In this document: piece after piece, positions 2,221 to 12,875 of the stretch
How the letters are laid out: each line of letters begins with the position of its first letter
Numbering within the stretch: position 1 is the first letter of the stretch
Source: a virus
Length of the DNA: 14,708 bases
Virus genome (UHGV): UHGV-1345802
Reading direction: 5' to 3' (one strand)
The notes under the pieces: model-generated
Seen by the model: the letters and a program-made list of their open reading frames with translations, nothing else
Told to the model about the DNA's origin: nothing
Database searches by the model: none
Position numbers and translations under genes: made by a program

Positions 2221-3036
2221 TCAGTGAACGGTATCGAGCAGCTTTAACAGCTCAGGGAATCGGGATTCGAAGAAATGCGGCTGCGTCTCGCGCGGATTTG
2301 CAGGACTGGTGATGTTCTTGCCGAACATGCAGCCTTTCGCTGTCAGCGACCAGAATTTTTTGATGTTGTTAATCGCGGTACGGCTGTATCGTTCGCGTTG
2401 TTCAACGATCCCCAGCTTCGCCATCTGGTGATATGCCTGATTAGCCGTCAGGCGGATACCATACTGCTTCAGCAGTGCACTCAGCGACAGCGTAGGGCGG
2501 CTTGAACCATCTGGCGCATCAGCAGGTGCATCAATGGCATAGATCGGCATAAGTTCAGGAAGACCAGCTACCTTTGATAATTTCTGGTATGCACCAAGTT
2601 TCGAGGAGTTTGACAGATTTAGAGTCTTTGCTGCTGATTCAAGCAGAATGACCCCGGATTTAATTTTGTCGGATGTGGTTTCTTCTGGTGATGAATTATG
2701 AAGCGCATCAAAAGTACGTATCACTTTTAAGCTGAATGCCGGGCTGATCCACATTGCATATGCATAGACCAGCTCTTTACAGACATACGTCCCACCATTG
2801 CGCCCCTGAATGGTGATGACAGGAATACTACGGGAATCTCCCGTAGTTTCTTCTTCCAATAATTCCACAAGAGCCTTCGTTTCAGGACGACGCATAAACT
2901 CGTGAACTTCCAGCGAACGGGAGGAGCGATTCTCACCAGCGGCAAGAAGAGCAGCTTTCTGAAGGTCGTTAAGACAGTAGTTAGATTCGAAGTACTGGCG
3001 CACAGAAACGCCATCAATTACAAGCAACTGATTCAT
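2221..3036 (-). CDS. KilA-N domain DNA-binding protein (antirepressor-like)
   Basis: The N-terminal region ...GGTYVCKELVYAYAMWISPAFSLKVIRTFD is typical of the KilA-N domain. ATG at 3036 is preceded by GGAG at 5-nt spacing; the ORF-track start at 3048 is GTG. Confidence 0.7.
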   Translation of the reverse strand: MNQLLVIDGVSVRQYFESNYCLNDLQKAALLAAGENRSSRSLEVHEFMRRPETKALVELLEEETTGDSRSIPVITIQGRNGGTYVCKELVYAYAMWISPAFSLKVIRTFDALHNSSPEETTSDKIKSGVILLESAAKTLNLSNSSKLGAYQKLSKVAGLPELMPIYAIDAPADAPDGSSRPTLSLSALLKQYGIRLTANQAYHQMAKLGIVEQRERYSRTAINNIKKFWSLTAKGCMFGKNITSPANPRETQPHFFESRFPELLKLLDTVH

Positions 3037-3198
3037 TGGTTTCTCCACAAATTTTTATCCACGAGCGGGACTGCACTCCCTTTTCGTTGATGCAGGATGA
3101 ACTTACTGCGATTTTTAATAGTTATCAAGGATACACTGTTCATAAATACAGTATCTTTAACGAGGTAATACCCAAATTTAGGGTGTTGCTCAATTCCG

Positions 3199-6337: not shown

Positions 6338-6558
6338 GCCACACCTCCCAGACGCTTAAACATTTTTCCGGAGCAAAAGGCTATAAGCGGCATACTGACG
6401 CGGTAATTACGGCCCAGCGGTTCACAAATCACCTTCTGACATTCACGGTCAACCAGGCTAACACGTAGAACATGCCCTGCAGGCGTGGTGTACCACTGAC
6501 CCGGACGAGGACAACGGAAAGTCTGATTGGTAAAACGTTTGAAAATATTCCGGATCAT
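6334..6558 (-). CDS. Hypothetical small protein (74 aa)
   Basis: ATG at 6558 with GGGGG 5 nt upstream; ATGA overlap with the Rha-gene stop, and its own stop overlaps the next start. Confidence 0.5.
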   Translation of the reverse strand: MIRNIFKRFTNQTFRCPRPGQWYTTPAGHVLRVSLVDRECQKVICEPLGRNYRVSMPLIAFCSGKMFKRLGGVA

Positions 6559-7706
6559 TTGCGCCCCCTTGCCTCTGAAGGGTTCAGCGACAAATTTATG
6601 AGGCAGGCCAGCGCCGAAGCATCATTAATATAGTCATATAAGCTAACAGCCAGCGGAGATTCGGCTTTTGCCAACATAGGATAAAGCTGCTGCAGCCAGA
6701 CCTGATGAATTGATGAAATGTAGGAACAGAGAACGCTGGCGTTATGTGCAACGTCGCTCGGTACAGCAGGCTTTGAAAGCTGTTTCTCCATCTGGTTAAA
6801 GGCATTGATGTATGCCTCTTTGAACTTGGCAGCACGTTTACCCGTGAAACCCATAGCAAGAAACGCAAAACCGTCGCGGGTGATTTGGTAACAAGGGAGT
6901 TTGCGGCCTGATGCGTCGGTGTATTCACTTAACACAAAAATGTGTTCAGTAAATTCAGCGGAACATTCGAGGTTTCTAATTCTATCTAAAACCCGCTCAT
7001 GCCGTTTAGTAAAGTAATTAGCTACTGCAAGAGATGTGGTGACAACGCGACCATTGATAATCGTGATTTCAGGGTGAGATTGGGTTGGGAGAGTAGTCAT
7101 GGTGACAGCCCCTATGTTGAATTCAATGAACTCACCACCAAGGCTTTCCACGACCATATAGGTGGTGAGACGTACAGGGGTGGAAATACCGGTCAACATA
7201 GAACCCGGCCCAACCGAAGTTGGCCCTGCACGCCCCACCATAATTTGGGCGTAACGATGCTCATGACACGAAAAAACCGCATGAGCGCGGTTGTGCTCTA
7301 TATTGAATTTCGGGTTTCCACGCCCGGCACCCGCTTTATAAGGTGCCGGAACAGTGTAACGTCCCGGAATTGCAGAATCAATATGCTGGTGTTCCTTCAC
7401 ACTCAACAAAATCACGCCTGAATTTCCACAAAGGACTAAAGCACTCATGCGGGTAGTCTTTGCGAAGATAGATAACGCGCTGTGTTTCTGGCTCCCAACG
7501 AATAACATGGACATAAAGCCCTCTTCCGTCACGAAACCAGCGGTTAAGTTCCTGCACAACTCGCCCCCCACAGTCAGGTAAAGTTCTCTGTGGTTACTTA
7601 CAGCCAGGTGATTTGGTAATCTGCATTCATGCCGTAACAACAGGTGTTCAGCGACGCTGACCACCAGCTGTTGCGACAAACGGTTATTTGCCGTTAAACT
7701 GTTCAT
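6555..7706 (-). CDS. Rha-family phage regulatory protein with an unexplained ~200-aa N-terminal extension (possible fusion or two genes)
   Basis: Residues from the internal Met at 7100 (MTTLPTQSHPEITIINGRVVTTSLAVANYFTKRHERVLDRIRNL...) look like the Rha (pRha) domain. The frame is open upstream to an ATG at 7706 that overlaps the preceding stop (ATGA). The N-terminal 202 aa match no family I recognise. Confidence 0.6.
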   Translation of the reverse strand: MNSLTANNRLSQQLVVSVAEHLLLRHECRLPNHLAVSNHRELYLTVGGELCRNLTAGFVTEEGFMSMLFVGSQKHSALSIFAKTTRMSALVLCGNSGVILLSVKEHQHIDSAIPGRYTVPAPYKAGAGRGNPKFNIEHNRAHAVFSCHEHRYAQIMVGRAGPTSVGPGSMLTGISTPVRLTTYMVVESLGGEFIEFNIGAVTMTTLPTQSHPEITIINGRVVTTSLAVANYFTKRHERVLDRIRNLECSAEFTEHIFVLSEYTDASGRKLPCYQITRDGFAFLAMGFTGKRAAKFKEAYINAFNQMEKQLSKPAVPSDVAHNASVLCSYISSIHQVWLQQLYPMLAKAESPLAVSLYDYINDASALACLINLSLNPSEARGRK

Positions 7707-8365
7707 GCGTTAGTTTCTCCACAACCAGAAGCAATCGACGCCACGACGCCCGGAGCTGCACACTCGCGGGCGTTACTCTTTTCCGGCGCACAAAAAACAC
7801 GAAATAACAGTGTTAAATGCTCCTGCCACTTCGCCATTACTTGGTAGCTGTTCTCTTCGATTTGCTCACGCTCAGCCTGGTCAATAACTCCATCAGCAGT
7901 TGCCTTGCGTAAGTACTGGGAATGCTTGCCAATCCATTCTATTGACTCCATCAGCCGCTGATTAATGTCACCATTGTCAATGTCATCAATGTCCACCAGC
8001 GGCACAAACACCCCATTACAACGACGCGCTATCGCATCCGTTACATGCCTGGTACCACTGGCATCCTGTAAAACCATGGCCCACTCAAGTGGAAAAATTT
8101 GATCCCCACCGCTACGCAGTCTGTTATGCAATTGATCTTTCGCTGGGGTGATATCATCAGATTTATACAAACCAAGAATTTCCGCTGCTTCCTCATAGCC
8201 ATGAGGTAAATCAGCAATCGTTCTTCGTATTGCTGCCACCAGCCATGCTGGTTGCTTATCAACTTTCCATTCAGGTTCTTTACCCACGGTTAATTCCTCG
8301 TTTCTGTGGTTACGTTTACGCAGTTGAACCGCTAACTTTTTAATAGCACTCAGGTAATCCATCAT
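7703..8365 (-). CDS. CII-position regulatory protein (CII/YdaT-like, tentative)
   Basis: About 220 aa directly downstream of cro, the slot used by lysogeny-establishment regulators. Start is ambiguous (ATG 8365 or 8362, or ATG 8398); either overlaps the cro 3' end. Family is a tentative recollection. Confidence 0.4.
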   Translation of the reverse strand: MMDYLSAIKKLAVQLRKRNHRNEELTVGKEPEWKVDKQPAWLVAAIRRTIADLPHGYEEAAEILGLYKSDDITPAKDQLHNRLRSGGDQIFPLEWAMVLQDASGTRHVTDAIARRCNGVFVPLVDIDDIDNGDINQRLMESIEWIGKHSQYLRKATADGVIDQAEREQIEENSYQVMAKWQEHLTLLFRVFCAPEKSNARECAAPGVVASIASGCGETNA

Positions 8366-8587: not shown

Positions 8588-8649
8588 CCTCTGAAATTCA
8601 GAGGGATAATGCTACTTAAAATAGCAAATTGCAACTACTTAAAATAGAA
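8588..8649. promoter_or_regulatory. oR/pR-pRM divergent control region
   Basis: Candidate pR on the minus strand: -35 TTGCAA (8629-8634), 17-nt spacer, -10 CATTAT (complement of 8606-8611). Repeated CTACTTAAAATAG at 8612-8624 and 8635-8647. A 17-bp perfect palindrome CCTCTGAAATTCAGAGG (8588-8604) lies between the -10 and the cro Shine-Dalgarno. Confidence 0.55.
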
Positions 8650-9390
8650 ATGACTAGCGCGTGCGATGTGAGTAATCTTCTACCTATGGTAGAAGAACAG
8701 AAGTATCCAGATTTCGCCAAGAGACTAAACGAATTGATGACAATCAAAGGAATCTCTGTCACTCAACTCAAAAGTCTTGTGGGCGTTACATATGAAATGG
8801 CTCGTCGATACACAATCGGCGCAGCGAAGCCACGTGTCTCTGTCATGAGTAAACTTGCGTTGGCTCTTGGAGTATCAGCTTCATATCTAGAATATGGTGT
8901 TGGAGATAGAGAGGAATGTAAGGAAATGGCAAGCATCCCCAATCCAACAAAGCCCGATGTATACAGGATAGAAGTTTTGGATCTTAGCGTTAGCGCAGGA
9001 CCTGGGACCTATATGCTTTCAGACTATGTTGATGTGCTCTACGCCATTGAGTTCACAACTGAACATGCCCGTTCTCTTTTCGGAAACCGTTCTCAGAATG
9101 ATATAAAAGTTATGACGGTAAATGGAGATAGTATGTCCCCAACTCTTGTTTCCGGGGATCGATTGTTTGTCGACATTTCCGTTCGCCACTTCCAGACTGA
9201 TGGAGTTTACTCTTTCGTTTACGGTAAGACTTTCCATGTTAAACGTCTACAAATGCAAGGCAACAAACTAGCTGTTCTTTCGGATAACCCCGCCTATGAG
9301 AAATGGTACATTGATGAGAAGTCGCAAGATCAGCTTTATGTTATGGGTAAGGCACTGATTCATGAGTCGATTAAATATAATCGACTTTAA
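8650..9390 (+). CDS. cI: cI-type prophage repressor (HTH_XRE + S24 LexA-like peptidase)
   Basis: N-terminal HTH (LNELMTIKGISVTQLKSLVGVTYEMARRY) and a C-terminal S24 domain with GDSMSPTL and a downstream Lys (HVKRLQ). The start has no Shine-Dalgarno (ATG 8650 or ATG 8686; track start TTG 8629), consistent with a leaderless cI message. Confidence 0.85.
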   Translation: MTSACDVSNLLPMVEEQKYPDFAKRLNELMTIKGISVTQLKSLVGVTYEMARRYTIGAAKPRVSVMSKLALALGVSASYLEYGVGDREECKEMASIPNPTKPDVYRIEVLDLSVSAGPGTYMLSDYVDVLYAIEFTTEHARSLFGNRSQNDIKVMTVNGDSMSPTLVSGDRLFVDISVRHFQTDGVYSFVYGKTFHVKRLQMQGNKLAVLSDNPAYEKWYIDEKSQDQLYVMGKALIHESIKYNRL

Positions 9391-9624: not shown

Positions 9625-10710
9625 ATGATTAATGAACGTACTGAAGCGACAGATGGGGTAGCAGATATGATTTCCACCAATACAAAATATTTAGTATGGA
9701 ACAACAAAGGTGGTGTAGGAAAAACTTTTCTTACATATAATCTTGCCGTTGAGTTTGCTATATCTCATCCGGATCAAGATGTTGTGGTTATTGACTCATG
9801 CCCTCAATCAAACGTTTCAGAAATTATTCTTGGTGGCAATGGTACCGGGGAAGAAAATCTAAATAAATTGCGAGACAGAAATGTTACAATCGCAGGTTAT
9901 ATCAAGGAGCGTTTTAGCAAATCTCCTTTGTCTCGTTTAGGAAATGAATCTTCTTACTTTGTACGAGCCCATGATGTTAATGCAAAAATGCCAGAGAACT
10001 TATATATTCTTCCTGGTGATGTCGATCTTGATATCTGTTCACGCTTAATATCTCACATTGGCTCATCCCCAGTAAAAGAAGCATGGAAGAAAAGCCGATC
10101 TTTGCTGGTAGATCTAATAGCATCTTTTGAAGCCGATAAAAACATTTCTGACAGAGCAAAAACATTTTTTATTGATTGTAATCCAAGTTTTGCCAGCTAC
10201 ACAGAATTGGGAGTAGTCGCGGCAAATAGAATAATTATCCCTTGCACTGCCGATGCTGCATCAATTCGCGGAATAAAAAACCTTGTTAAACTTATTTATG
10301 GAGTGTCTATTGACAAGTCAGAACAAGATGAAATGTTCTTAGATTTCAACAAAGAAGCAAAGCAAAACCTTATCGAACTACCTGAACTACACCTTTTCGT
10401 ACAAAACCGCTCAAGAACTAATGAAAGTGATGCAGCAAAAGCATTCAAATCACATGCAGAAGAGATCAAAAGAATCACGGATGACCTGTTAAATACACAT
10501 CCTCATCTGTTCACAAATGTGGCTACTTTCGAGAGAGTTCAAAATGTCAAAGATGGTAATACTCTTGCAGCAATAATAAACCATGAGGGATGCCCTTTAA
10601 GTAGGCTGCAGCATAAGAGTTACACTATCTATGGTATGGCGACCCAAGCTAATAGAGCACAAATTGAAGCACTAGAATCTGATGTTTCAACAGTAGTCAA
10701 GTGTCTGTAA
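9625..10710 (+). CDS. Orphan ParA/MinD-family P-loop ATPase in the rex-equivalent position (candidate superinfection-exclusion or defence moron)
   Basis: Deviant Walker A NNKGGVGKT, then IDSCPQSN and FFIDCNPSF...IIIPCTADAASIRG matching ParA/Soj motifs; 361 aa with a long C-terminal extension. The gene and flanks are visibly AT-rich, and no ParB-like partner was seen. ATG at 9625 (AGGAT upstream); alternative ATG at 9670. Confidence 0.75.
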   Translation: MINERTEATDGVADMISTNTKYLVWNNKGGVGKTFLTYNLAVEFAISHPDQDVVVIDSCPQSNVSEIILGGNGTGEENLNKLRDRNVTIAGYIKERFSKSPLSRLGNESSYFVRAHDVNAKMPENLYILPGDVDLDICSRLISHIGSSPVKEAWKKSRSLLVDLIASFEADKNISDRAKTFFIDCNPSFASYTELGVVAANRIIIPCTADAASIRGIKNLVKLIYGVSIDKSEQDEMFLDFNKEAKQNLIELPELHLFVQNRSRTNESDAAKAFKSHAEEIKRITDDLLNTHPHLFTNVATFERVQNVKDGNTLAAIINHEGCPLSRLQHKSYTIYGMATQANRAQIEALESDVSTVVKCL

Positions 10711-10746
10711 TACAATAACCATGATTTAGAACGAACATAATTCTCG

Positions 10747-10770
10747 CCCGACCAACAGGTCGGGTTTTAT
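10747..10770 (+). terminator. Intrinsic terminator after the ParA-like gene (tImm-like)
   Basis: Stem CCCGACC (10747-10753) / GGTCGGG (10758-10764), loop AACA, followed by TTTTAT. Confidence 0.7.
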
Positions 10771-10985
10771 ACTCGTAGCCTGCTTAATAACACTGTTCCT
10801 GACCCGTTGTATCCATAGTTCCCACTATTTTCCCCAAAATTATTACTATCTAATTAACCTAATAATTAAACCAAAACAAAAGACACTCGATATTTTCTAT
10901 ACGTAACTACACCACATCCCCCCATCTGTGAAAAACCTTTTAATTCATAACGTTATATAGAAAACTAAAAATTAAATACACACTT

Positions 10986-11027
10986 CTACTTTTTGTTGTT
11001 GATTTTTGCTACTTTTAGTAGCATCAT
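10986..11027 (+). promoter_or_regulatory. Candidate pL/oL: near-duplicate of the pR/oR cassette
   Basis: -35 TTGATT (10999-11004), 17-nt spacer TTTGCTACTTTTAGTAG (differs from the pR spacer at 2 positions), -10 CATCAT (11022-11027). Operator-like CTACTT motifs at 10986-10995 and 11009-11021. Confidence 0.5.
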
Positions 11028-11037
11028 TATCTGAACA

Positions 11038-11054
11038 AACAACAGACTGTTGTT
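11038..11054. repeat. 17-bp perfect palindrome AACAACAGACTGTTGTT at the predicted start of the leftward early transcript
   Basis: Read directly from the sequence. Same position relative to the promoter as the unrelated palindrome at 8588-8604 downstream of pR. Confidence 0.5.
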
Positions 11055-11439
11055 AACGAAAGGTTGGTTGTAACACGGCGTATGGCACATGCGTCGTTAG
11101 CGGTCTGGGGACGTTAAAGGGGACAATCCACTCCTTGCTCGGGCAAACAAACCAGGTAGCCGGAATGTGCAAGTCAATGATGATGCTGATAAGACGCCTA
11201 ACCAGCGTGGCGATTCGGTTTGACGCTTGGGAAGAGACCAGGGTGCAACGATGAGGGCATTTATGGAGCCGCGACAAAGTGTGGTGCCGTAACTGGCTAA
11301 GTGCTCTCAGCGTTGTGGTAATCCGCGAAATGGCGCGGCGGTAAGTATGGCGGGGTTACTCTTTCCCCGTTGAGGACACCGGATTGTCAGGTTGACCATA
11401 CGCCTGAGTGACAACCCCACCACAACAGCCACTGCTTTG

Positions 11440-11485
11440 GCGGTACCAGTTTGTACACTTGCTTCCGGCTGGTACCGCTCTTTTT
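11440..11485 (+). terminator. Strong hairpin plus U-tract in the early-left leader (tL-like terminator or attenuator)
   Basis: 10-bp stem GCGGTACCAG (11440-11449) / CTGGTACCGC (11469-11478), 19-nt loop, followed by TCTTTTT. Confidence 0.5.
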
Positions 11486-11622
11486 ACAAAACAGAGAAGA
11501 GCATCACCGGACGACGGGCTCATAACCCAATCCATCCGGGCGGCTGCCACCGCAGGTGTTCTTCTCTGTTTTGTGGAGAAACCAACCGACCTTTCAGGGT
11601 CGATATGATGAGGAGCAGCAAA

Positions 11623-11985
11623 ATGGCTAGCGAACGCAGTACTGATGTGCAGGCATTTATCGGGGAGCTGGACGGCGGCGTATTTGAAACCAAAATCGGC
11701 GCAGTTCTCAGTGAAGTCGCTTCCGGTGTGATGAACACGAAAACCAAAGGTAAGGTCTCACTCAACCTGGAAATCGAACCATTTGATGAGAACCGTGTGA
11801 AAATCAAACACAAACTCTCATATGTTCGCCCGACTAACCGCGGCAAAATTTCCGAAGAAGACACCACCGAAACGCCGATGTATGTCAATCGCGGTGGTCG
11901 CCTGACTATTCTGCAGGAAGACCAGGGACAATTACTGACTCTTGCCGGTGAACCTGACGGAAAACTACGCGCAGCAGGTCATTAA
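11623..11985 (+). CDS. YfdP-like early-left protein (120 aa)
   Basis: ATG at 11623 with AGGAG 7 nt upstream; same length and gene order as the first gene of the CPS-53 yfdPQR cluster (recalled). The longer in-frame upstream extension in the ORF track starts at TTG and lacks a ribosome-binding site. Confidence 0.6.
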   Translation: MASERSTDVQAFIGELDGGVFETKIGAVLSEVASGVMNTKTKGKVSLNLEIEPFDENRVKIKHKLSYVRPTNRGKISEEDTTETPMYVNRGGRLTILQEDQGQLLTLAGEPDGKLRAAGH

Positions 11986-12050
11986 TATCGTTCTTAATTA
12001 ACTGATTATTTATCTCATCACTGAATATCTTTATATAGTGAGGACTTATT

Positions 12051-12875
12051 ATGTCTCAGAACTTAGACGCAACCGCAATTAATCAAATCCATGCCCTTAT
12101 TTCTGCTCAGGGTGTTAATGAAATTATCAGTAAGATTGGTGCCGATGCTGTGGCATTGCCTGAGAATTTCCGCATTCATGATCTGGAAAAATTTAATTTA
12201 AATCGCTTCCGTTTCCGTGGTGCGCTTTCCACTGCCAGCATCGATGACTTTACCCGTTATTCTAAAGATCTTGCAGATGAAGGCACCCGCTGCTTTATCG
12301 ATGCTGATAATATGCGTGCCGTCAGTGTACTTAACCTGGGTACTATTGATGAACCAGGTCACGCAGATAACACCGCCACTCTCAAACTGAAAAAGACAGC
12401 ACCGTTCTCTGCCCTGCTGTCTGTTAACGACGAGCGTAACTCCCAGAAGTCACTGGCAGAATGGATTGAAGACTGGGCCGACTACCTTGTGGGCTTTGAT
12501 GCTAATGGTGACGCTATTCAGGCAACAAAAGCGGCTGCGGCAGTCCGTAAAATCACGATTGAAGCAAACCAGACCGCTGATTTTGAAGATAATGACTTCA
12601 GCGGCAAACGCTCCCTGATGGAATCTGTCGAAGCGAAGACCAAAGACATTATGCCAGTGGCATTTGAATTTAAATGCGTTCCGTTTGAAGGTCTGAAAGA
12701 ACGTCCGTTTAAATTACGCCTCAGCATTATCACTGGCGATCGTCCTGTACTGGTTCTGCGCATTATTCAGCTGGAAGCGGTGCAGGAAGATATGGCTAAC
12801 GAATTTCGTGATCTGCTTGTTGAGAAATTCAAAGACAGCAAAGTAGAAACCTTTATTGGTACTTTCACCGCCTGA
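12051..12875 (+). CDS. YfdQ-like protein (DUF2303-type, 274 aa)
   Basis: ATG at 12051 preceded by GAGGA; length and position match YfdQ of prophage CPS-53 as recalled. Confidence 0.6.

Follow-up and report, generated by a model that had tools for sequence, protein, structure and literature searches.

The non-coding early leader of a lambdoid prophage is a mosaic of structured RNA modules with homology to the dicF locus

Introduction

Several structured phage RNAs are cut from longer early transcripts, including the C4 antisense RNAs of P1 and P7, the CI antisense RNA of P4, 'species 1 and 2' of T4 and the GOLLD and ROOL RNAs. Such RNAs often adjoin tRNA genes and are released by tRNA-processing enzymes, and in C4 and CI a conserved scaffold carries variable loops. 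The described system closest to the one presented here is the dicF locus in the dicB operon (ydfABC-dicF-dicB) of the Escherichia coli K-12 prophage Qin, where the 53-nucleotide (nt) DicF RNA arises through early Rho-independent termination and an RNase E cut at its 5' end, while RNase III cuts the read-through dicBF RNA to a 72-nt form and transcription reads through into dicB (PMC9438474). The same source reports that DicF of Qin depends on Hfq. The subject of this work is the interval of about 570 nt directly upstream of yfdP (11055-11622) in virus genome UHGV-1345802, a stretch of 14,708 nt (the window) which as a whole is a lambdoid prophage of the cdtI/mEp460/SfV kind.

Another early RNA system is that of phage HK022, whose put RNAs render RNA polymerase resistant to terminators in cis, an effect that mutations in the beta' zinc-binding domain block. 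They are ~70 nt long and consist of two stem-loops (PMC9378689); we located putL and putR in HK022 through the primers in that paper. Prophages also carry the Pas/STnc100 genes, which lie mostly near Q and the lysis genes (bioRxiv 10.64898/2026.05.13.724894). An original prediction for this DNA had described the interval as a single G+C-rich leader with a hairpin and U-run that should stop early-left transcription unless an antiterminator acted, and had proposed an HK022 put-like element, a processed small RNA (sRNA) or a decayed gene.

Results and Discussion

When compared with phage genomes by BLAST, the interval falls into blocks of differing distribution. The block 11064-11318 (module A) is found in P1, P7, phiV10, TL-2011b, SPN1S, a Klebsiella phage and mEp390, the block 11312-11434 (module B) in Evi, PPompW and pPE4 and at a second site in P1, and the block 11438-11625 (a hairpin and module C) in SfV, SfII and ST64B. 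Instead of one element, the leader is therefore a mosaic in which at least four structured RNA modules of the plus strand are mobile separately, and the supposition that this non-coding DNA acts at the RNA level is supported by conserved, covarying helices. The conserved block begins at 11053/11054 or 11064 in other phages, which matches the left edge at 11055. The composition is indeed G+C-rich, with a G+C content of 0.54-0.56 over 11100-11699 as compared with 0.30-0.36 over 10700-11099 and 0.36-0.40 beyond yfdP, and with an excess of G (GC skew of +0.13 to +0.23) across 11000-11399. In comparison with shuffled sequences, the 601 nt from 11040 to 11640 fold with z = -5.5 on the plus strand and z = -3.1 on the minus strand. 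No Rfam family was found in the interval at its gathering score, nor any at E ≤ 10 over 10700-12100, and ARAGORN and Rfam detected no tRNA or tmRNA.

Module B and the hairpin that follows it are homologous to the dicF locus. In K-12 Qin, the 568 nt between the ydfC stop and the dicB start carry, directly upstream of dicF, a copy of module B with 91% identity, and the Rfam DicF model (gathering score 48 bits) scores 76.7 bits in Qin and 76 bits in Evi and PPompW, in each case right after module B. The hairpin of the window occupies the same position in an early lambdoid operon, directly 3' of module B, and has a GGCGG.../...CCGCC stem followed by five U. Its spacing from module B is that seen in Qin, Evi and PPompW apart from a ~19-nt deletion, and it aligns with the DicF terminator stem, which has UUUGGCGGUA(U/C)CAGUUU where the window reads UUUGGCGGUA(C)CAGUUU (alignment A3). 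The loci are further alike in their place in the immunity-left operon, in the length of the untranslated stretch and in the presence of a long stem right after the U-run. However, the window has module C after the hairpin where Qin has an STnc100-like element, it has module A in front, which Qin lacks, and the genes downstream are yfdP and yfdQ instead of dicB. The leader is a new variant of the known DicF-locus architecture, with a diverged hairpin at the DicF position and a different downstream stem, and it is this homology that favours the processed sRNA among the options proposed originally.

The hairpin and U-run, first reported at 11440-11485 with a stem of 10 base pairs (bp), proved to be real and somewhat larger, with 13 bp at 11439-11485. 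The hairpin has a minimum free energy of -21.2 kcal/mol (z = -4.3 versus 200 shuffles), and its stem covaries in nine homologues, one pair being U-A in four of them and C-G in four. A simple terminator scan missed it because the 15-nt loop exceeds the 8-nt limit of the scan. This is a terminator-type structure under selection and likely the 3' end of a released sRNA. The loop is CU-rich like that of DicF but different from it, and further loop variants occur at this position in pPE4, in Kosakonia loci and in mEp390. These differing loops suggest different targets, and DicF-like regulation may extend beyond ftsZ.

In module B, 94.2% of the alignment cells are paired, compared with 29-58% when the partners are slid. 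Folded alone, module B does no better than its shuffles (z = -1.0), since its main helices form a pseudoknot, which is beyond the folding program. In Qin, Evi and PPompW, DicF is followed by a sub-threshold STnc100-like element and then by dicB or kil. The STnc100 model (RF02076, gathering score 47 bits) reaches 33-46 bits only in relatives and has no match in the window at E ≤ 10. Nevertheless, STnc100/PasD RNAs are comparable as structured prophage sRNAs in the same arrays, and STnc100 and module B both start with GUGG-(U/C)RAAU and a hairpin inside the closing helix. The STnc100-like elements (L249 2433-2642; L253, L254 and L255; L235 4242-4452; L003 2069-2188) stand after DicF in Qin, Evi and PPompW, ~150 nt 3' of module B in pPE4 and after module A in L235, and also occur in the P1 ban operon.

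Module A is the first of the modules. Homologues were collected from BLAST hits and from scans for an invariant 16-mer, which gave 148 loci with a full-length match to the module A profile, 47 of them distinct sequences below 94% identity. The profile matches the window at 11074-11246 (E = 7e-34, 116.5 bits), and the window copy has all the helices and blocks, including the invariant GGUAGCCGGAAUGUGCAAG. In alignment A2, which comprises 33 sequences, 96.8% of the cells are paired versus 90.3% in shuffles, none of which (0 of 500) comes up to this figure, and 28-44% once the partners are slid, and 11 pairs show compensatory change, in 63 cells. One pair of the second pseudoknot (PK2) is intact in all the sequences, as C-G in 28 and as A-U in 5; the window has the rarer AACC/GGUU version with A-U. 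The first pseudoknot (PK1) never varies among the aligned sequences and is uninformative for covariation. The frequent G-U pairs of module A indicate that the plus strand is the folded, functional strand.

The 3' domain of module A is closed by helix P7, and this pairing is kept by two sequence types, GAUGAGAGCA/UGCUCUCAGC and GGUAAGAGCA/UGCUCUUUCC. The inserts within it measure 37-72 nt and are wholly different between phages, yet common to unrelated phage types. They occur as discrete alleles (L004, L052, L032/L144, L058/L153, L186/L210), and the allele of the window is also present in a phiV10-like Uetakevirus (L004) and in a genomic locus of Klebsiella pneumoniae (L052). This sharing suggests cassette exchange. 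The SPN1S insert contains two T-loop-like hairpins. The idea that the insert is a 'guide' to a site in the same phage was rejected, as the longest common words in 21 loci were no longer than those of shuffled inserts; a 14-nt repeat in the window (11285-11298/5099-5112) is likewise within chance expectation.

Module A was found in 1831 of 5426 complete E. coli genomes (34%), at 2464 places, 554 of them on plasmids. In the ban operon of P1 and P7 it precedes ban, with a gap of 3 nt to the preceding tRNA-Ile in P1; no feature is given for it in the P1 record, despite the very detailed annotation there. In Uetakeviruses (such as the phiV10-like O157 typing phage 10) it lies between the terminase and portal genes and ends exactly at the 5' end of tRNA-Arg(UCU). 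In lambdoid leaders it follows promoter-like sites by 0-55 nt, with spacings clustered at 7-8 and 48-55 nt; in mEp390, for example, the repressor gene is followed by a TTGACA-18-TACATT promoter and, 55 nt further on, by module A. It stands upstream of a DicF-type terminator in 87 of 131 lambdoid loci as judged by a crude pattern, and also in mEp390, while Qin, Evi and PPompW are without it. Viral contig L145 has two full copies ~800 nt apart (4959-4803 and 4154-3998). Module A is an independent, mobile RNA gene. A scan of a genome collection for the 16-mer gave mostly chance matches outside the Enterobacterales, 19 of 120 loci carrying the element, so that distant hosts are not assessable by this means.

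Module A appears to be undescribed, as far as a partial access to the literature and a sampling biased by exact-word fetching allow. Neither the window copy nor five further module A loci match any family of Rfam 15, and the only annotation under any of the listed matches is a neighbouring tRNA. Word searches of the accessible literature found nothing relevant on the conserved sequences or on RNAs of the P1 ban operon, and no comparable RNA appears in a 2025 review table of phage sRNAs. C4, CI, GOLLD and ROOL are all in Rfam and none of them matches module A; the C4 RNA of the window, at 7158-7245, is unrelated.

Module C starts within the U-run of the hairpin and has a minimum free energy of -47.8 kcal/mol (z = -7.3). 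Together with the terminator stem, it is kept in nine homologues from E. coli, Kosakonia, Phytobacter and viral contigs, and a joint RNAalifold model of the terminator hairpin and module C in these 9 sequences shows compensatory changes in 12 of 45 pairs. By analogy with the dicBF RNA, module C is plausibly an RNase III processing stem that would separate the RNA array from the yfdP mRNA. Between module C and yfdP lies a small hairpin (11587-11602), in place of which the homologues have a different one, GGCGG-UUGCAG-CCGCC.

Table 1. Positions of the modules, their helices and neighbouring features in the window
Feature	Position	Strand	Description or basis
Module A	11073-11317	+	~245 nt, two pseudoknots, covariation
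Module A core	11073-11245	+	33-sequence alignment A2
Helix P1	11076-11080/11092-11096	+	Alignment A2
PK1	11085-11090/11165-11170	+	6 bp; P1 loop GGCACAU with AUGUGC after P2
Helix P2	11100-11108/11152-11160	+	Alignment A2
Helix P3	11173-11175/11209-11211	+	Alignment A2
Helix P4	11194-11197/11205-11208	+	Alignment A2
PK2	11200-11203/11217-11220	+	4 bp; P4 loop (C/A)ACC with GGU(G/U)
Helix P6	11226-11230/11238-11242	+	Loop GAAGAGA
Helix P7	11246-11259/11302-11315	+	14 bp, CAACGAUGAGGGCA with UGCUCUCAGCGUUG; 3' domain 11246-11315
Hypervariable apical insert closed by P7	11260-11301	+	
Module B	11312-11426	+	Alignments A3 and A4 with K-12 Qin, Evi, PPompW, pPE4 and P1
Module B closing helix	11312-11319/11419-11426	+	GUUGUGGU/ACCACAAC
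Module B interior		+	Hairpins CCGCG/CGCGG and CGGGG/CCCCG; H-type pseudoknot GUAUGG..UUGUCA..CCAUAC..UGACAA
DicF-position hairpin	11439-11451/11467-11479	+	13 bp (three G-U); 15-nt loop UGUACACUUGCUUCC
Hairpin tail	11480-11485	+	C + UUUUU; U-run 11481-11485; whole hairpin feature 11439-11486
Module C	11484-11576	+	~22-bp closing stem 11484-11505/11555-11576 (inverted repeat I2), three-way junction
Module C hairpins		+	CCGGA..UCCGG (loop GACGGGCUCAUAACCCAAUCC) and GCGG..CCGC
Small hairpin	11587-11602	+	CGACCU-UUCA-GGGUCG; fold; between module C and the yfdP ribosome-binding site
Shine-Dalgarno sequence and yfdP start	GAGGAG 11610-11615; ATG 11623	+	Prokaryotic Genome Annotation Pipeline (PGAP) annotation of 99%-identical prophage
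Putative pL-type promoter	-35 TTGCTA 11006-11011; -10 TATCTG 11028-11033	+	16-nt spacer; sequence reading only
17-bp palindrome TGCTACTTTTAGTAGCA	11007-11023		Overlaps putative pL; read from the sequence
CI-like repressor gene	8629-9390	+	Annotation of 99%-identical prophage
ParA-family gene	9625-10710	+	Annotation of 99%-identical prophage; own terminator 10746-10765

The interval is non-coding. The original description of it as free of open reading frames (ORFs) holds for ATG starts, as no such ORF of at least 20 amino acids is present on the plus strand; TTG or GTG ORFs (39 and 66 amino acids, and a 77-codon in-frame upstream extension of yfdP) and minus-strand ORFs (74 and 64 amino acids) do exist, but none behaves as coding. 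One might argue for a protein gene, either real or lately decayed and with the minus strand as its likeliest place, from open minus-strand stretches of 100 and 94 codons, from ORFs called in phage records (mEp460 gp36 and gp37) and from PHROG matches, the 64-residue minus-strand ORF matching phrog_3651 (E = 5e-38) and the 66-residue plus-strand ORF phrog_33599. One minus-strand frame has a single stop codon across the 601 nt, and in locus L147 it has none over 195 codons, which would be unusual by chance. However, both PHROG families are of unknown function and were built from gene calls on near-identical phage DNA such as that of mEp460, so that a match to them is no evidence of translation, and the long open minus-strand frame, which the wider family does not keep, is probably a by-product of composition, the folded strand being G-rich and stop-poor. 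Compared with homologues of 81-89% identity, the candidate ORFs have substitutions spread evenly over the codon positions (14/14/12, 10/10/12 and 10/13/12, for example) and contain indels of 1, 2, 8, 10 and 22 nt, while the same method gives the strong third-position excess of true genes for yfdP and yfdQ (2/1/18 and 43/32/104). Neither strand has a frame that stays open throughout the 47 distinct module A sequences, in which the spacers between conserved blocks cover all classes modulo 3 (23/14/10 and 17/16/14). Pfam has no match for the six largest ORFs of the interval, and PGAP calls no gene there in the 99%-identical E. coli prophage. The small conserved ORF with substitutions of the coding type that had been named beforehand as evidence against an RNA-level role was looked for with a negative result, and the decayed-gene option fails for want of codon periodicity and of conserved frames. 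G-U pairs and compensatory changes account for the conservation, and a protein gene is very unlikely indeed.

We think it rather probable that this is the untranslated 5' leader of a repressor-controlled pL operon and that it forms a cassette of stable-RNA modules of the DicF-locus type. The putative pL (TTGCTA-16-TATCTG) was not listed by a consensus promoter scan. Where near-identical leaders are combined with other immunity regions, the distance from the end of a TTGACA-16-CATAAT promoter to helix P1 of module A is 53-54 nt, comparable to that of the putative pL. The palindrome that overlaps pL is likely a repressor operator, and transcription is predicted to start near 11040. After induction, module A would thus be made first, as a compact RNA of ~245 nt, followed by the pseudoknotted module B, which lies directly 5' of DicF in Qin, Evi and PPompW, and then by the diverged DicF-position hairpin with its U-run. 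Some polymerases would terminate at 11485, giving the 3' end of a released RNA, and the remainder would read through to yfdP, as in the dicB operon. In the read-through RNA, RNase III would cut the module C stem and separate the array from the yfdP-yfdQ-yfdR mRNA, and module A and the module B-hairpin RNA would be released as stable species. Since module A follows tRNA-Ile in P1 and abuts tRNA-Arg in Uetakeviruses, its release there would fall to the tRNA-processing enzymes. The G-rich, tightly folded leader would perhaps also be a poor substrate for Rho.

This account removes the apparent paradox of a strong terminator in an early operon without N, because in a locus of the DicF type internal termination and RNase processing make the sRNAs and read-through is normal. 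The homologous terminator in Qin lies inside the dicB operon, the distal genes of which are expressed without N, so that an N-like factor would be unnecessary here as well and the original argument that the hairpin calls for an antiterminator loses its force.

A number of points weigh against this account. Its promoter, RNA ends, efficiency of termination and RNase E and RNase III cuts, like the release and stability of the RNAs, are inferred throughout. The DicF covariance model (RF00039) has no match over 10700-12100 even at E ≤ 10, and the 12-nt single-stranded 5' arm of DicF (UUUCUGGUGACG) is deleted in the window. With the translation-initiation region of ftsZ, RNAduplex gives the hairpin -24.8 kcal/mol, a value equalled by 88% of shuffles, versus -38.5 kcal/mol for the DicF control, matched by 4%; targeting of ftsZ by the hairpin was accordingly set aside. 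The hairpin may be only a terminator or attenuator and no functional sRNA. The covariation of module B is weak, with compensatory change in 3 pairs, since its homologues are close relatives. The module A set was largely fetched by an exact 16-mer from the most conserved block, which contains the 3' strand of PK1, so that the invariance of this block and of PK1 arises partly by construction. Module A usually precedes a DicF-type terminator, an arrangement that is also compatible with a role in cis.

One such role is that of the HK022 put RNAs, with a nascent module A that binds RNA polymerase, allows read-through of terminators and replaces the missing N. In its favour, no ORF was found between pL and yfdP, the stretch covered by the search for an N analogue, and module A would, like put, be a cis-encoded RNA near the early promoter of a lambdoid phage apparently without N, close behind promoter-like sites and commonly in front of a terminator. 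The first stems are even identical, as CGGCG/CGUCG of helix P1 together with CAUG matches the base of putL stem I, and there is a common string ACGGCG...CAUGCGUCG. However, this 9-mer is not a conserved feature of put, putR having CGGCC/GGUCG at that place, and we judged the string to be common by chance. Module A has none of the blocks that putL and putR do have in common (GGUYCARGGAUGA and CAAUG). A 10-kb search with its profile gave no match at putL at a cutoff as loose as E ≤ 100, and BLAST with putL finds HK022, HK75, O276, phiEt88, HK639 and others, none with module A. The fold is also different, with two pseudoknots in a core of ~170 nt (~245 nt for the whole module) instead of two stem-loops over ~70 nt, so that neither sequence nor structure supports membership in the put family. 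Moreover, module A sits where operon-wide antitermination is not needed, being downstream of a dicF-like terminator and directly before ban in P1 and preceding only a tRNA and one small ORF in Uetakeviruses, and Qin, Evi and PPompW read through the DicF terminator without it (PMC9438474). We consider a put-like action of module A unlikely. HK022 locus L252 shares 13 nt, CGGUGUGACACCU, with the PK2-P6 region of module A, at 413-428 on its minus strand and about 300 nt downstream of putL; this identity is probably due to chance (E = 0.15 in the 10-kb search).

The location upstream of an intrinsic terminator, and the complex, highly conserved fold of module A with its invariant loops, could also be expected of a conditional attenuator, riboswitch-like or sensing a protein or tRNA, in which a ligand of module A or B decides by alternative pairing whether the terminator forms. 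The P7 3' strand and the 5' strand of the module B closing helix have GUUG in common (11312-11315), but an overlap of 4 nt is too small to enforce a switch; the modules and the terminator occur independently in other phages, no terminator follows module A in P1 and Uetakeviruses, and there is no Rfam riboswitch match. Such a device is improbable. Still harder to credit is an element acting as DNA, such as operators, an origin or single-strand initiation site, or a packaging or recombination site, even though the leader lies next to the immunity region, the Uetakeviruses have module A between terminase and portal genes, and the mosaic boundaries suggest recombination joints. The G-U (G-T) pairs that are kept would be A-C mismatches on the other strand, one P2 pair being U-G in 33 of 33 sequences, and module A is always oriented with the local transcription, whether in the P1 ban operon, in pL operons or beside tRNAs, while the genomic positions differ in three phage types.

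A more far-reaching possibility, which we put forward tentatively, is that module A represents an undescribed class of complex-folded phage RNA with a biochemical function of its own, beyond that of a base-pairing sRNA or a processing scaffold. It may act directly on RNA polymerase or an RNase, bind a ligand or a host or defence protein, or be catalytic. If this were true, the class would be carried by P1/P7, Uetakeviruses, many lambdoid prophages and about a third of sequenced E. coli. An RNA with a new complex fold in genomes as well studied as that of the model phage P1 would merit a study of its structure and function. Spurious proteins are annotated across module A in several phage records, and it should therefore be masked from ORF calling.

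Returning to the leader as a DicF-type cassette, the early leaders of prophages look like arrays of exchangeable RNA modules, namely A, B, the DicF-position hairpin, the STnc100-like element and C, and DicF is then one allele of a wider modular system.

The gene context was taken from the PGAP annotation of the 99%-identical prophage. There is no annotated gene between the ParA-family gene and yfdP, which is the first real gene of the operon and is followed by yfdQ and yfdR. The ParA-family gene has a low G+C content and its own intrinsic terminator and lies between the CI-like repressor gene and pL; it may be a moron expressed in the lysogen, in the position of lambda rexAB.

Some smaller observations concern the leader and other parts of the window. 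The segment CGCUCUUUUUACAA (11477-11490) spans the end of the hairpin and the U-run, homologues keeping CUCUUUUUACRCAACA, and we take it to resemble the rrn boxA, UGCUCUUUAACAA. At the 3' end of module C, UUUGUGGAGAAACCAA (11570-11585) recurs reverse-complemented at 3036-3051 and 7709-7724, exactly on the translation starts of the minus-strand genes 2221-3048 and 6555-7706, and at the corresponding place mEp390 carries AUUGUGGAGAAGCUAA. The recurring sequence looks like a common initiation-region motif of the GUGGAGAAAC type, and no start codon follows it in the leader. Elsewhere in the window, within 7158-7346 on the minus strand, Rfam finds a C4 antisense RNA (82 bits, 7158-7245) and IsrK (62 bits), a pair also present in mEp460. 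They sit inside a 383-residue ORF (6555-7706, minus strand) which is called an antirepressor or regulator in relatives, and this region looks like a c4-ant control module of the P1 immI type with an over-extended ORF call.

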